Shown here: positions 2,306 to 51,155 of the stretch, piece after piece | How positions within the stretch are numbered: the first letter of the stretch is position 1 | How the letters are laid out: the number at the start of each line of letters is the position of its first letter | From: a virus | IMG/VR virus record: IMGVR_UViG_3300032304_001768 | Span: 18,327-82,326 of that record | Length of the DNA stretch: 64,000 bases | Direction: 5' to 3' (one strand) | The notes under the pieces: model-generated | What the model was told of the DNA's origin: nothing | Databases searched by the model: none | What the model saw: the letters and a program-made list of their open reading frames with translations, nothing else | Translations under genes and position numbers: made by a program

Positions 2306-2737
2306 ATGAGTAATTGGATTGATTTGCCCGAAGACACCGCCAAATATCATGGGTTTGTCTATATTATCAATAATAATCATCCTGATAGTGATAAGAAATA
2401 TTATATAGGATGTAAGAAATTATTAAAAAGAGTAAAGAAAAAACCATTAAAAGGTAAAAAGAGAGCTAGAATATCCTACGTTGACAATAATGTTGACAGC
2501 TATTGGGGTAGTTCGGAGGAGCTAAAGTCTGATATTGAACAATATGGACTTGATTTTTTCACAAAAAAGGTGTTGCATCTATGTGAAAATCAATGGGAAA
2601 TGAAATTTCTTGAAATGTATGAGCAAATGAAAGCGAATGTTTTATTTGACAATTCATCATACAATGGCATAATCAACGTTAGAATTAATAAAGTTCCTAA
2701 ATCATTGCAGGAAAAATACAAAGATTTTAAATTTTAA
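2306..2737 (+). CDS. GIY-YIG family nuclease
   Basis: GFVYII...YYIGCKK, YWGSS, YNG motifs. Confidence 0.75.
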   Translation: MSNWIDLPEDTAKYHGFVYIINNNHPDSDKKYYIGCKKLLKRVKKKPLKGKKRARISYVDNNVDSYWGSSEELKSDIEQYGLDFFTKKVLHLCENQWEMKFLEMYEQMKANVLFDNSSYNGIINVRINKVPKSLQEKYKDFKF

Positions 2738-2740
2738 CAA

Positions 2741-3283
2741 ATGAATATTGAAAAAGAAGTTTTAGAAAGTGTGGTGGTTTCGATAGTTTTTGAAGATTCC
2801 AATAAAGAATTATTGGATATTGATGAAATTTTTAAAAAAACCAATCGAGAATTCCCTGAGATGTTGAAAAATTTAAATCTTGACATTAGTTTTGATTTTT
2901 CAAACAGGGATATCAAAAAACTATACACCACTCAATTTCTTCTAACATTTGTAGAATACATTAAGAATAGAAACCGCACTGAGAAATTGTATCTGTTCAG
3001 CAATCAATTGACCAAAGATGCATTCCGCAACAAATTGATTCATAAATTAAAAACTATTTTTGGATTTACAGTTTTTGAGCAAATTAAGGATCTTAATGAG
3101 ATTTTTGAAAAAATCACAGAATCTGATTGTGAAACGGTATCGCACGTTGAATTGTTTTTGAACACCGAGAGAAAATTGAAATCGTTAAAACAGATCAAAA
3201 AGTATCTGAACAAAAATGGTCTGACTTATCTCAACGATGTTTATTTTAATGAGTTATCAAACAAGCTTTGTCTTTTTGTCTAA
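2741..3283 (+). CDS. hypothetical protein
   Basis: 180-aa ORF in tight operon. Confidence 0.6.
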   Translation: MNIEKEVLESVVVSIVFEDSNKELLDIDEIFKKTNREFPEMLKNLNLDISFDFSNRDIKKLYTTQFLLTFVEYIKNRNRTEKLYLFSNQLTKDAFRNKLIHKLKTIFGFTVFEQIKDLNEIFEKITESDCETVSHVELFLNTERKLKSLKQIKKYLNKNGLTYLNDVYFNELSNKLCLFV

Positions 3284-17154: not shown

Positions 17155-18771
17155 ATGGCACAAATGATACTCGACTTCCCGGAAGGCTACACCCCTTCGA
17201 CACATCAGGCAAAAATAATCACCGAGATTGAAAAGGCCATTGCAAACAATGAGAAATTTATTGTTTGCAATGCTGCGACAGGAACGGGAAAATCATTTTT
17301 CGCTCCTACTTTGGCAAATCACTTCGGAGGACCAACAGCAGAATGGAATTCAAAGGTTGATGATTACTCCATTTATGGAGAAGATGGCGCTGAATTTGCT
17401 GAAAACCAACCGTTGTTTGGTGTGTATGCATTAACAATAACAAAATCCCTACAAGATCAATACAAGCAAAGCTTTGATTTCGCTCAGGTCTTGAAAGGAC
17501 AAAGCAATTATCAATGCAATTACGATGATACCCTGACTGTTGACGTTGCTCCATGTTTGTATCTTCCAGCATTGAAAAATGAATGTTGGTCTTGTAATCG
17601 ATGCTCGTATTACAATGATAGAAACACCATGCTGAAAGCTGAATTCGCGGCTTTGAATTACAGCATGTATTTCTCATTGCCTTCTCATTTGAGGAAACGT
17701 AAAGTGTTGGTGCTGGACGAAGCTAGTGAATTGGAAGATCAGCTTGTCAGTCAATTTACATGTGAGATTGATATCCCATTCTTGATGAAAACCCAAACTG
17801 CGGTTACGGCATTTCCAGATGATGAGAAAAGTGTAAAAGTTCTGACATGGTTAGGCAAGCTAATGGGAGCATTGACCAATTCAATTGAGAGTTACAAAGA
17901 ATATTTCAAAACCAAGAAAGGAAAAGATTTGGAGTTTACTAAAAAGAAGTCTGAATACACCAAACTTGCCAACCTTTCAAAAAGTGTCGAACTACTGATC
18001 AGCACTTTTAATGATAGTCAATACATCGTAGAGCATATCGAAAAGAAAATTCGATTCACCCCTCTCAAGATTGATAAATTGAGCCGTTATTTGTTTGACA
18101 ATGCTGATCATGTTGTGTTGTTGAGTGCAACAATCATTGATCCTGTTAATTTCTGTAAGAATTTGGGCATTCCAAAATACAAATACATTGAAATCGACTC
18201 ACCATTTGATGCGGAAAAGGCTCCCATTTATGTGCTGGCTCACCAAAAGATCAACTTTGGCAATTTAAAGACATTGCTGCCTACCTTGTGCAAGCAAATT
18301 GATGGCATTTTGAATGAGCATGCCGATCAAAAAGGCATCATCCACACCCACACTCAATACATAGCAGACTATATTCGAGACCATGTGAAGAGTAATCGAT
18401 TGATATGTCGTGAAGCTGGCGTTACCAATGAAGATATTCTTGAAAAGCACACCGAAGACGCTGGACCTACGGTATTGGTATCGCCATCAATGACTTATGG
18501 AGTTGACTTAAAGGGTAAATTGGCTGAATTCCAAATCATATTGAAGGCTCCGTGGCTTCCTACCAAAGATGTCAGAGTCGAACGAATGATGAAGTTGGAT
18601 AAAGAGTGGTATTCTAATAAAATGCTATGCACTTTGGTTCAAGCGTGTGGTCGTGGAGTTCGCAGCGTCAAGGATGAATGTGTTACATATGTGCTTGATG
18701 GCAGTATTTTCGATGCTGTATCTCGGAACAAAAAGAAACTTCCCAAGTATTTTATTGATAGATTTCAGTAA
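17155..18771 (+). CDS. DinG/Rad3-like helicase
   Basis: AATGTGKS, KGQSNYQC Cys cluster, LDEA, LSAT, GVDL, QACGRGVRS; TTGACT-N16-TACCAT promoter 6 nt upstream. Confidence 0.85.
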   Translation: MAQMILDFPEGYTPSTHQAKIITEIEKAIANNEKFIVCNAATGTGKSFFAPTLANHFGGPTAEWNSKVDDYSIYGEDGAEFAENQPLFGVYALTITKSLQDQYKQSFDFAQVLKGQSNYQCNYDDTLTVDVAPCLYLPALKNECWSCNRCSYYNDRNTMLKAEFAALNYSMYFSLPSHLRKRKVLVLDEASELEDQLVSQFTCEIDIPFLMKTQTAVTAFPDDEKSVKVLTWLGKLMGALTNSIESYKEYFKTKKGKDLEFTKKKSEYTKLANLSKSVELLISTFNDSQYIVEHIEKKIRFTPLKIDKLSRYLFDNADHVVLLSATIIDPVNFCKNLGIPKYKYIEIDSPFDAEKAPIYVLAHQKINFGNLKTLLPTLCKQIDGILNEHADQKGIIHTHTQYIADYIRDHVKSNRLICREAGVTNEDILEKHTEDAGPTVLVSPSMTYGVDLKGKLAEFQIILKAPWLPTKDVRVERMMKLDKEWYSNKMLCTLVQACGRGVRSVKDECVTYVLDGSIFDAVSRNKKKLPKYFIDRFQ

Positions 18772-48358: not shown

Positions 48359-48418
48359 ACAGTATTCGTCTAATGGCTTAAGACTACTCCCTCCAAAAGA
48401 GAAAACGTGGGTTCGAAT
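48359..48418 (+). pseudogene. truncated tRNA-Trp(CCA)
   Basis: D arm, CT-CCA-AA loop and GTGGGTTCGAAT present; 3' T-stem and acceptor strand missing at the HNH gene boundary. Confidence 0.7.
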
Positions 48419-48439
48419 ATCATTTATGTAAATACTTTC

Positions 48440-49138
48440 ATGGACTACAAAACTATATATGACAATTTAATTAAACATAGACAGGAACATCCAGCTGAAG
48501 GATATACCGAACAGCATCATATAGTCATGCGCAGTATGGGCGGAAGTAATGAATCATCAAATCTTGTTTCTTTAACTGGTCGCGAACATTGGATTGCTCA
48601 TTTACTCTTATACAAGATTCATCGAAATAAGTTATCAGCCTATGCTTGCCATATGATGGCAATGAAATGTGAAAAACGTGGCATACCACATGTTCGTAAT
48701 TCTCGAATGTATGAAAAAATAAGAATATTATGTTCTAAACATATTGGTATAAATAATACACATACTCAAACAGGGGTGAAAAATTCTCAATACGGAACGC
48801 GGTGGATATGCAATATTCTTTTGCAGCAAAATCAAAAAATTTCTAAAGATGTGGAATTACCTGATGGATGGATCGTCGGTCGAAATAAATGGATAGATCA
48901 TAGCGTAACGCTTAGTTGTGTGACATGTAAATCAACATTCAAAACGTTGAATGTGAGATCTAAATATTGTTCGCGAACGTGTTATCCACCTCGCAAGCCC
49001 ATGAAAGTCTCTTACGAGACCAGACAAAAAATGTCTATCATTAAGAAAGAATTATATAAAGATCCAACACGTAATCCAAATTACGGAAAATTTAAAAATA
49101 AAAAAACACAGTTGCAGCAAGTGGCGGTTGCAGAATGA
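48440..49138 (+). CDS. HNH homing endonuclease
   Basis: YTEQHHIV.RSMGGSN...NLV.LTGREHWIAHLLL, NSQYGT.WI; 3' end overlaps tRNA-Trp. Confidence 0.88.
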   Translation: MDYKTIYDNLIKHRQEHPAEGYTEQHHIVMRSMGGSNESSNLVSLTGREHWIAHLLLYKIHRNKLSAYACHMMAMKCEKRGIPHVRNSRMYEKIRILCSKHIGINNTHTQTGVKNSQYGTRWICNILLQQNQKISKDVELPDGWIVGRNKWIDHSVTLSCVTCKSTFKTLNVRSKYCSRTCYPPRKPMKVSYETRQKMSIIKKELYKDPTRNPNYGKFKNKKTQLQQVAVAE

Positions 49139-49185
49139 CTCCAAATCATTTGTTTTAGCGAGTTCGATCCTCGCCAACTGTGCCA
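49108..49185 (+). tRNA. tRNA-Trp(CCA)
   Basis: Cloverleaf, G73, CCA; begins inside the HNH ORF. Confidence 0.82.
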
Positions 49186-49198
49186 CTTTTTTAATAAT

Positions 49199-49272
49199 GG
49201 CGTGTTGTCAGATCGGTTATGTAGGGCACTGCAAATGCTCGTAGGTAGGTTCGACTCCTACACATGCCTCCA
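49199..49272 (+). tRNA. tRNA-Cys(GCA)
   Basis: Cloverleaf, U73, CCA. Confidence 0.88.
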
Positions 49273-49282
49273 TTTTAAAAAC

Positions 49283-49357
49283 GGGGAATTAGCTGAGTGG
49301 TAAAGCGGCTCTTTTACACGGAGTAGATCGGGGGTTCGATTCCCTCATTCCCTACCA
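49283..49357 (+). tRNA. tRNA-Val(TAC)
   Basis: Cloverleaf, CCA. Confidence 0.9.
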
Positions 49358-49481
49358 TTTAAGTTTATATCGGCATGTGGAGAAATTGGCAGTCTCGGCA
49401 GACTTTAAAGTTTAAATTTATCCTCATGTAGCAATCTAGTTGAGGGGTTGACAAACAATTCCTATGCTACTAAATAATAAC

Positions 49482-50276
49482 ATGTCTGCAAAATTAAGAA
49501 AGTATACCAAAGAATTTTTAGAACCTAAAGTTAAAGAAGTCACATCAATGACTGCTTTAATAGAAAGCATAGGGCTTAAACTTACTGGAGGCAGTTATCG
49601 ACTGTTAAAACAAAGAATAAATCAACATGGAATATCCATAGATCATTTTATTGGACATGGTTGGTCGAAAGGATTAACTAAAGAAACATCAGATACATTA
49701 AATAAAAATTCTCTTAAAACGAGGACGCCCCATGAAAAAGTTTTTTGTATAAATTCCGGGTTTAATTCTAGTAAATTAAAATATAGATTATTAGATCTTG
49801 GTTGGGAAGACAAATGCAATATTTGTGGATTGAAGGACTGGCTAGGTAATCCTATTACTTTACATGTTGATCATATAAATGGAATATCCGGAGATAATAG
49901 ATTGGAAAATTTGCAAATAATTTGTCCCAACTGCCATCAACAAACAGAAACATGGGGTAATAAAAAAGACAAGGGGAGTATGGTGAAATTGCTAAACACG
50001 CCAGACTTAGGATCTGGTGCCGAAGGGCTTGTCGGTTGGAGTCTGACTACTCCCACCAAAAAATGTATAGACTGTGATAAAAAATGCTCTTGTAATGCTA
50101 CAAGATGTAAATCTTGCGAAGCTATTAGAAAAAACAATAATATAAAAAAAAGAGTTTCTAAAGAACAATTAATTTTAGATTTAAAAGATTTAAAAACATA
50201 TGTTGAAATATCTAAAAAATATAATGTATCTGATGTATCCATTAAAAAATGGTGTAAATTTTATAATCTAGTTTAA
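49482..50276 (+). CDS. HNH homing endonuclease inside the tRNA-Leu insert
   Basis: C..CG..DW...ITLHVDHING...DNRLENL.IICPNCH; C-terminal Cys cluster and HTH. Confidence 0.9.
   Translation: MSAKLRKYTKEFLEPKVKEVTSMTALIESIGLKLTGGSYRLLKQRINQHGISIDHFIGHGWSKGLTKETSDTLNKNSLKTRTPHEKVFCINSGFNSSKLKYRLLDLGWEDKCNICGLKDWLGNPITLHVDHINGISGDNRLENLQIICPNCHQQTETWGNKKDKGSMVKLLNTPDLGSGAEGLVGWSLTTPTKKCIDCDKKCSCNATRCKSCEAIRKNNNIKKRVSKEQLILDLKDLKTYVEISKKYNVSDVSIKKWCKFYNLV
49974..50058 (+). tRNA. tRNA-Leu(TAG) embedded in frame within the HNH CDS
   Basis: GGGAGTA/TACTCCC, CCAGA-CTTAGGA-TCTGG, variable arm, ACCA; compensatory C19:G56. Confidence 0.85.
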
Positions 50277-50349
50277 ACAAAAGAATCTGTTGCTTAATCG
50301 CGTGTGGGTTCGAGTCCCACCATGCCGACCATTTAGATTAAATAGTTTT

Positions 50350-51155
50350 ATGTTAAACTTTAAACAATTCTTCTTCGAACGTGCATTCCACGGTTCACCA
50401 AACGAGGTGGCTGGAGATTTCAATCTGGATTATATTGGAACTGGCGAAGGTGGACAAGCTTTTGGTTGGGGATTGTATTTTGCAGAAAACCCTAAAGTTG
50501 CTGAAACGTATAAAAATTTACATCCATACTCTCAGAGAGAAGTTCGATACAAAGGAAAAACTCCGAGAGAATGGGAAGATGTTAGTGATGGAACGAGCAA
50601 TATGTTTGGGAGAAGATTAGACTGAATGTTTCAAAAGAAGATTTATTAAATTATCCATTGTCCAAACAACAGCTTGATTTGGTGAAATCACTTCCTGATG
50701 AATTGTTTCATAAAGGTAATATGTATGAAGTTAACATTGATGCATCCATAGATGATTTCATTCATTACGATGGATCAGAATCTGAATATGATCCAATCTT
50801 AAAAAAGATCAATGATGGAATCAAAAGATTCTATCATTATGATGAAGGTAATTATTTTCAAGGAACATACGATGGAAAATCCATTTATCCAAAGGTGTGT
50901 AAAGTGGTTGCAGATTTTGAAAATAATTTAGAACAGTTTGGATCACAACCCACCAAAAATGAACAGATATTAGGAAGTAAATTCCTAGCAAAAGTGGGAG
51001 TCAAAGGAATTCGATATTTAGATGAGCTATCCAGATCATCTGGACAAGGCACTTATAACTATGTTATATTTGATCCATCTATTATTAAAATAGTGAAAAC
51101 GAACGGTCAGTTTGTGATGCCTTCCAAGAAACCAGAATCTGTCGAAATCGATTGA
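50350..51155 (+). pseudogene. ADP-ribosyltransferase-like protein, frameshifted near 50588
   Basis: FHGS...GTGEG.QAFGWGLYFAE in one frame; YEV.I and G..GIRYLD...NYVIFD in the other frame, open from 50589. Confidence 0.65.

Follow-up and report, generated by a model that had tools for sequence, protein, structure and literature searches.

The virus record IMGVR_UViG_3300032304_001768 is 82 kb long and is estimated to be 39% complete. The window analysed here is a 64,000-nucleotide part of it (positions 18,327 to 82,326) and has a cluster of 28 tRNA genes, as called by ARAGORN. In this cluster a class-II tRNA-Leu gene is split into two halves that flank an 876-nt insert. The insert contains the gene of an HNH endonuclease, and the open reading frame (ORF) of this gene runs through a second, complete tRNA-Leu. 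The features, in window positions, are as follows.

49371-49405, plus strand: outer tRNA-Leu 5' half (acceptor 5' strand, D arm, anticodon-stem 5' strand, first loop bases).
49406-49481, plus strand: insert leader, non-coding, with a hairpin and a TTGACA at 49448-49453.
49482-50276, plus strand: long-form HNH endonuclease ORF, 264 amino acids (aa) plus stop, supported by the ORF list, the Pfam HNH match and alignments.
49815-49943, plus strand: HNH catalytic motif (Pfam PF01844, residues 118-160 of the 270-aa version).
49974-50058, plus strand: inner tRNA-Leu(UAG), whose gene encodes the CCA and has a C19:G56 pair, supported by ARAGORN (Leu(tag)), Rfam and covariation.
50059-50273, plus strand: C-terminal Cys4 zinc-ribbon and helix-turn-helix (HTH) domain, supported by homology, conserved cysteines, a confident fold and a weak Pfam match to HTH_28.
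50282-50331, plus strand: outer tRNA-Leu 3' half (last loop bases, anticodon-stem 3' strand, variable arm, T arm, acceptor 3' strand, A73, CCA).

The outer halves belong to one gene. ARAGORN, with introns allowed, called a single tRNA over 49371-50331 with an 876-nt insert. A profile hidden Markov model (HMM) made from 144 unique tRNA-Leu genes of related loci matched 49373-49405 at model positions 3-35 and 50282-50329 at positions 36-81, so that the two matches abut exactly on the model. The 3'-half match has an E value of 2.6e-6, and this half is unique in the window. The acceptor strands form 7/7 Watson-Crick pairs followed by A73 and CCA, and the anticodon-stem strands form 5/5 pairs. Thus the two matching halves around an insert of about 876 nt, which a first-pass annotation of this DNA had noticed, are real. 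Its reading of the joined anticodon as UAG (CTT/AGAA) is one of three that give a 7-nt loop, but AAG (CT/AAGAA) and UUA (CTTTA/AA, ARAGORN's choice) fit as well. The break lies within 49404-49409. An uninterrupted relative, a tRNA-Leu(AAG) gene with a 26-nt exact match over the T arm and acceptor, occurs on another viral contig (L028, 4800-4886).

The inner tRNA gene scores 51 bits against the Rfam tRNA family RF00005, well above the gathering score of 29, and it is the only tRNA-Leu(UAG) among the 28 tRNAs of the window. By sequence comparison it is under selection at the RNA level, as had been proposed from the compensatory C19:G56 swap. In six inner tRNAs, 15 of 17 stem pairs show double compensatory changes and none is broken. 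The swap itself was examined in 544 unique tRNAs from all loci, 489 of them with a parsable T arm, although the parsing of the D loop was crude. Position 56 was C in 478, G in 5 and U in 5; all five G56 tRNAs (Leu, Leu, Met, Ser and Thr) have C19 instead of the usual G19:C56 pair, and four of the five U56 tRNAs have A19. Covariation is also visible in the encoded peptides, where KLL goes with GW (P0001, P0002, P0005, P0006) and KLV with SS (P0003, P0004). Finally, a strain variant at 50044 (T>C) turns a G.U of the T stem into G-C and at the same time a leucine of the protein into proline.

The same 85 nt encode the tRNA and 28 residues of an inter-domain linker, residues 165-193 of the nuclease being read in frame from the tRNA. 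The ARAGORN and Rfam matches agree with the earlier observation that the ORF passes in frame through a complete tRNA-Leu(UAG). Neither the window nor the relative L007 has an in-frame start codon downstream of the tRNA and ahead of the first cysteine of the zinc ribbon, so the C-terminal domain must be translated through the tRNA sequence.

The predicted protein consists of an N-terminal helical region, the HNH motif and the Cys4 zinc-ribbon with HTH. An in-frame ATG lies upstream at 49464; homologues begin at the position of 49482. The Pfam HNH score is 26.6 bits against a cut-off of 21.4, and with the open frame and the homologues this upholds the earlier description of an HNH gene with a C-terminal Cys/HTH domain. 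In 29 long forms C112, C115, H131, N143, C148, C151 and H152 are invariant, including two Cys-x-x-Cys pairs; of the zinc-ribbon cysteines C198 and C212 are invariant and C209 nearly so. An AlphaFold model computed from the alignment of these 29 long forms has a mean predicted local distance difference test (pLDDT) of 83.9, with both domains predicted to fold confidently. The sole segment below 50 consists of residues 163-188, which places the tRNA within a disordered inter-domain linker. A Foldseek search against the PDB returned no match at E<=0.001; its weak rows are HNH domains. The gp460 protein of Agrobacterium phage Atu_ph07 is 40% identical over the full length. Its linker is 15 residues shorter and without a tRNA, and a convergent tRNA-Leu(tag) starts 2 nt past its stop codon.

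Together these data point to an HNH cassette with its own tRNA-Leu(UAG) that probably inserted into a resident tRNA-Leu gene and replaced its function. The mobile cassette would consist of the short leader, the HNH homing-endonuclease gene and the complete tRNA-Leu(UAG), and would have entered a resident tRNA-Leu gene of the phage at its anticodon loop. The nuclease may cut or nick tRNA-Leu genes in the neighbourhood of this loop, repair may spread the cassette, and the outer halves may serve as homology arms or remain as footprints. The inner tRNA would then supply the only tRNA-Leu(UAG) found in the window. The precursor RNA would be split between translation and maturation of the tRNA by RNase P. 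The first-pass annotation had described an endonuclease that invades an essential tRNA gene and restores the lost function from within. The anticodon-loop cassette, the in-frame tRNA and the recurrence of the architecture agree with that description; the word essential is not supported, phage tRNAs being accessory.

Two sequencing runs contain strains of the same locus. A 22.6-kb contig of run X3, from a different study, covers 49200-50335 with the same nested arrangement and 10 differences over 1136 nt. The leader is the most variable part between strains, holding five of these ten. In 49482-49973, 5/6 substitutions found in X3 and X4 are synonymous. By this bias, by the invariant Cys, His and Asn residues and by the confident predicted fold, the nuclease protein is under selection. 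These points bear on the idea that the nuclease gene is defunct, crippled by insertion of the tRNA, so that the ORF is a slowly decaying relic and the inner tRNA alone is of importance. Degeneration after fixation is common among homing endonuclease genes, one relative (L094) combines an N-terminally truncated HNH with an embedded tRNA, and no clear ribosome-binding site or promoter precedes 49482. The idea is nevertheless quite unlikely, for the catalytic and zinc ligands are all kept, and six diverged homologues with an embedded tRNA have no stop and no frameshift. In L094 two tRNA-like pieces lie upstream of the HNH, at 2710-3000: one is a stray segment resembling a T arm, and the other, a 5' fragment resembling tRNA-Leu, is fused to the ORF; a small-window scan of 2690-3010 found no Rfam family match.

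The promoter motifs that had been assigned to the insert did not hold up. A scan of 49150-50500 found 4 promoter-like sites against 4.6 expected, none of them upstream of the ORF, and the TTGACA at 49448 is followed by a weak -10 or requires a 19-nt spacer. Among relatives, the insert of L052 begins with one good site; for L009 the rule of the tool yielded no site. The leader region 49398-49500 matched no Rfam family.

Relatives of the nuclease were found as 177 protein homologues, 21 viral loci and 80 metagenome loci, in addition to cultured phages. Linkage to tRNA genes was counted in 99 de-duplicated HNH copies with a complete domain end, taking the first tRNA after the end of the domain or ORF. 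This tRNA was a tRNA-Leu(tag) in 42 copies (32 on the same strand and 10 convergent), another tRNA-Leu in 15 and a non-Leu tRNA in 17; no tRNA was adjacent in 25, two of which are at contig ends. Thus the adjacent tRNA, present in 74 copies, is a tRNA-Leu in 57 of them. For comparison, Leu(tag) makes up 73 of the 610 tRNA calls in the same loci, the adjacent tRNAs themselves included. The ORF stop lies inside the tRNA in 26/99 copies. In Pseudomonas phage PPSC2 the ORF ends with a stop codon 10 nt into a tRNA-Leu(tag), in coliphage mistaenkt a tRNA-Leu begins 2 nt past the stop codon, and in Gordonia phage GodonK the gene sits between tRNA-Leu(tag) and tRNA-Glu. Other searches added little. 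A locus search through the downstream ORF gave one weak locus and was not useful, and a DNA search of the phage collection gave tRNA-sized matches only. The close homologues P0002-P0005 were absent from the loci returned by the metagenome scan.

The embedded form recurs in the family. At the DNA level 4 of the 99 copies (the window, L007, L042 and L094) read through the tRNA into a further ORF, all in the frame that reads U33-U34-A35 as TTA. At the protein level a tRNA-like linker followed by zinc-ribbon/HTH is present in 7 of 120 listed homologues (P0001-P0006 and P0074, the last inferred from the peptide alone), with P0120 as a further possible case. The embedded form spans 47-73% identity with the zinc-ribbon cysteines intact. 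In L007, at 47-48% identity, the tRNA is at the same position of the protein, and the cassette lies between intact tRNA genes. The cassette has therefore changed its context and kept its interior. In a midpoint-rooted FastTree tree, read without inspection of support values, embedded forms are spread over three or more places, and long forms are intermingled with short ones. A likely history is one of survivorship: where the frame through the tRNA was open the C-terminal domain was kept, and where it was closed a short form with a stop inside the tRNA resulted.

The nested layout, consisting of an outer 5' half, the HNH gene, a whole inner tRNA-Leu and an outer 3' half, occurs at five independent loci: the window, L009 (=L046), L042, L072 (=L074) and L063. 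In L063 (2795-3525, the split being judged by eye) the nested tRNA-Leu is on the minus strand and the HNH gene on the plus strand, which shows that the nuclease gene can take either orientation within a split tRNA. L096 has the two halves and the HNH gene and nothing else. At five further loci, L052, L082, L021 (=L010, L050), L019 and L059, an orphan 5' half is followed by the HNH gene and then by a whole tRNA. The 5' halves end within or just past the anticodon loop. In L052 (592-1242) and L082 (2897-3613) the 3' acceptor of the downstream tRNA fits the orphan 5' half better than its own 5' end; such hybrid tRNAs are expected if the cassette replaced only part of its target. Acceptor pairing is 7/7 in all six split pairs scored. 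The anticodon stem is fully paired (5/5) in the window, L009 and L022; L042, L072 and L096 reach 4/5 at best. With regard to mobility, the cassette is nested at five loci and stands in differing contexts in the window and L007, and no empty allele of the window's locus was found.

One relative places the family inside an intron. In L022 (2922-3702) a tRNA-Leu(UAA) gene is split between U34 and A35 by a group I intron encoding a short-form HNH of the same family. The intron core, P3-P9, was found in a 281-nt window (RF00028, 40.2 bits, E 3.9e-9), in the 175 nt that follow the HNH stop. The 5' exon terminates in CTT, and AAAA follows the G that is the last base of the intron; this is the classical U34/A35 site. 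With this intron-borne member at the same site, the ancestral homing site of the family was likely the anticodon loop of tRNA-Leu genes, to judge from the arrangement of these loci. L022 also holds a tmRNA at 556-939 (100.8 bits).

It has to be asked, then, whether the layout of the window could be a by-product of illegitimate recombination, with an HNH that neither targets tRNA-Leu nor needs its C-terminal domain and a read-through that is incidental. tRNA clusters are hot spots of recombination. The sequence of X3 diverges completely directly after the outer CCA (50335), so that the end of the outer tRNA marks a recombination boundary. The interleaving of long and short forms and the 17 copies next to non-Leu tRNAs point the same way, as does the frame itself, since about half of all tRNA-Leu(UAG) genes have it open by chance. 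This origin is unlikely, given the preponderance of tRNA-Leu among adjacent tRNAs, the breaks in the anticodon loop at independent loci, the retention of the embedded form with intact zinc-ribbon cysteines over its whole range of identity and the intron-borne member at the same site in L022.

The remaining alternative is that the insert is an intron, the outer tRNA being matured by splicing of a non-group-I kind (a bulge-helix-bulge with ligation, or cuts followed by RNA repair), and that both tRNAs work. The outer halves are intact and unchanged in X3, a loop read as CTTTAAA puts the insert, in the ARAGORN call, at the canonical position after the anticodon, and L022 has a self-splicing-type intron at the same site. 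The ends of the insert can also pair, a CTTT/AAAG helix standing beside an 8-bp GTTTAAAT/GTTTAAAC helix. The alternative is very unlikely on several counts. First, the non-coding DNA of the insert amounts to only 76 nt upstream of the ORF and 5 nt between the ORF and the outer 3' half. Second, the anticodon stem is at best 4/5 in three of the six split tRNAs of this kind. In addition, X4 has two changes in the 3' strand of the outer anticodon stem; its contigs do not cover 49399-49430, where the partner bases lie.

A group I intron was rejected as a candidate. No Rfam intron family matched at E<=10 in 49000-50700 (1.7 kb), 49398-49500 (103 nt) or 49940-50300 (361 nt), while L022, as the positive control, was detected in its 281-nt window, and this bears out the earlier failure to find group I core motifs in the window. 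At the sequence level no similarity to the L022 core was found in the window or in the other 108 loci. An intron ending at the G of 50283 would leave a loop of 5-6 nt or a 5' exon ending in A, so that no terminal G is compatible with the 7-nt Leu loop. Among the split loci only L022 fits the rule of a U before the intron and a G at its end (CTT/...G/AAAA). Small-window re-scans covered the window and L094 2690-3010 only. A 49-kb batch Rfam scan of eight loci (E<=1) missed the L022 intron, and its negatives for L009, L042, L063, L072, L094, L096 and L007 are therefore weak.

The bulge-helix-bulge intron, which the first-pass annotation had offered as its alternative, found no support. It can be drawn as a helix of 4 bp flanked by one bulge of 3 nt and one of 2 nt, the canonical ones being 3 and 3, and no recurrence of the motif was seen by eye in the other split loci. 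EndA (PF01974) and RtcB (PF01139) are absent from the incomplete 82-kb record in searches with positive controls, and the Rnl2 family is absent from it as well. A search for Rnl1 (RNA_lig_T4_1) matched neither the record nor any control and is therefore uninformative.

Several observations weigh against replacement of a resident tRNA-Leu by the cassette. No insert-free allele of the locus was found: a 22-nt pattern of the outer 5' half had no match in viral contigs, a 26-nt pattern of the 3' half matched one distant relative alone, and no contig of four runs joins across the insert. The outer halves are undamaged, with all acceptor and anticodon-stem pairs kept and 0/85 nt differing in X3, which fits a recent insertion and fits equally well a gene kept functional by some route of splicing. 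Since the record is 39% complete, a further tRNA-Leu(UAG) or an RNA ligase could lie elsewhere. A run of RNA data gave a single 151-nt contig over 49450-49600 and was uninformative. Only 42/99 copies are next to a tRNA-Leu(tag); some have a Cys, Glu or Pro tRNA as their neighbour, or none. The open frame alone proves little, for tRNA-Leu(UAG) genes are open in 31/59 cases in the frame used here (33/59 in the second frame and 0/59 in the third); the argument rests on the conserved C-terminal domain downstream. With an insert that lacks a ribozyme the outer tRNA is most likely dead, and insertion with replacement by the inner tRNA is still the reading that probably holds.

A further step can be proposed tentatively, at somewhat less than even chances. 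The 85 nt would be a working tRNA and a working nuclease linker at once, the spare copy would make the insertion harmless, and the family would descend from HNH genes of tRNA-Leu group I introns. RNase P would act as a throttle, because excision of the tRNA severs the nuclease mRNA and each transcript would yield either one tRNA or nuclease. If true, the nuclease is throttled, and the tRNA and the nuclease gene are inseparable by recombination. That such a cassette would be hard to delete and would limit its own expression through RNase P, as was first suggested, is plausible.

Homing endonuclease genes are thought to persist in self-splicing introns, in inteins, or between genes. The locus and its relatives suggest a fourth way, in which the element breaks its target and brings the replacement. 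Group I introns occur in the anticodon loops of tRNA-Leu(UAA) genes of cyanobacteria and plastids. These and the L022 intron share the class of host gene and the anticodon-loop site with the window insert. Unlike them, the insert is without a ribozyme core or a compatible terminal G and carries a whole tRNA, so its neutrality would come from replacement and not from splicing. Some integrative elements also enter tRNA genes and bring with them a copy of the tRNA segment that they displace; the likeness lies in the tRNA gene as the target and in its restoration by the element. They use integrases and duplicate the 3' end, whereas in the window an HNH nuclease is involved, the break is at the anticodon loop, and the tRNA carried is a whole and separate one. 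The turnover of phage tRNA genes is of current interest because these tRNAs act against defences that cleave tRNAs. Members of the present family occur in cultivable phages, namely Felix O1-like coliphages and Pseudomonas phage PPSC2, which makes nuclease-driven turnover of phage tRNAs directly testable.

Partial parallels are found in published systems. In the 'fractured genes' a free-standing homing endonuclease gene lies between gene halves that are rescued by split inteins (PMC2677866). There too a nuclease gene breaks the host gene and the element brings restoration of function, but the rescue is protein trans-splicing of a protein-coding gene, while in the window it would be a spare copy of an RNA gene (PMC2677866). 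SegB of T4 is a free-standing GIY-YIG homing endonuclease in the tRNA gene cluster; it recognises the T-psi-C motif of many tRNAs and cuts tRNA genes of phages that lack it (PMC2330249). Like the window nuclease its gene stands among phage tRNA genes, and it spreads with the neighbouring ones; unlike the window HNH, it is of the GIY-YIG type and is not tied to one isoacceptor, and as described there it lies between tRNA genes, splits none and has no tRNA inside its ORF (PMC2330249). It was recently reported to amplify such tRNA loci (PMC13096335). HNH genes are also present in tRNA arrays of mycobacteriophages and Felix O1-like phages and a role in shaping tRNA repertoires has been suggested for them; the Felix O1 array has a 1.4-kb gap that is followed by a tRNA-Leu(TAG) (PMC6409571, PMC3185647). 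The available parts of these two reports mention no specific linkage to tRNA-Leu, no split tRNA and no tRNA in an ORF. A literature search, with supplementary files outside its scope, found no description of a tRNA inside an HNH ORF, of a nested tRNA-Leu or of the linkage of this family to tRNA-Leu. The locus offers a clean natural example of a protein-coding gene that contains a tRNA gene in frame, with RNA and protein selection on the same bases, and the family a case of HNH nucleases tied to one isoacceptor, tRNA-Leu, across phages of many hosts.

A second arrangement of this type lies in the same cluster, within 48359-49185. A tRNA-Trp(CCA) remnant begins at about 48359 and ends after the T loop, and an HNH gene unrelated to the first (48407-49138) starts with the GTG at 48407 inside the T arm of this remnant. 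An intact tRNA-Trp at 49108-49185 overlaps the final 10 codons of its ORF. Among the related loci, tRNAs with a CUA anticodon, labelled Pyl by ARAGORN, occur in L008, L025, L028, L052, L053 and L101 and are possible amber suppressors.

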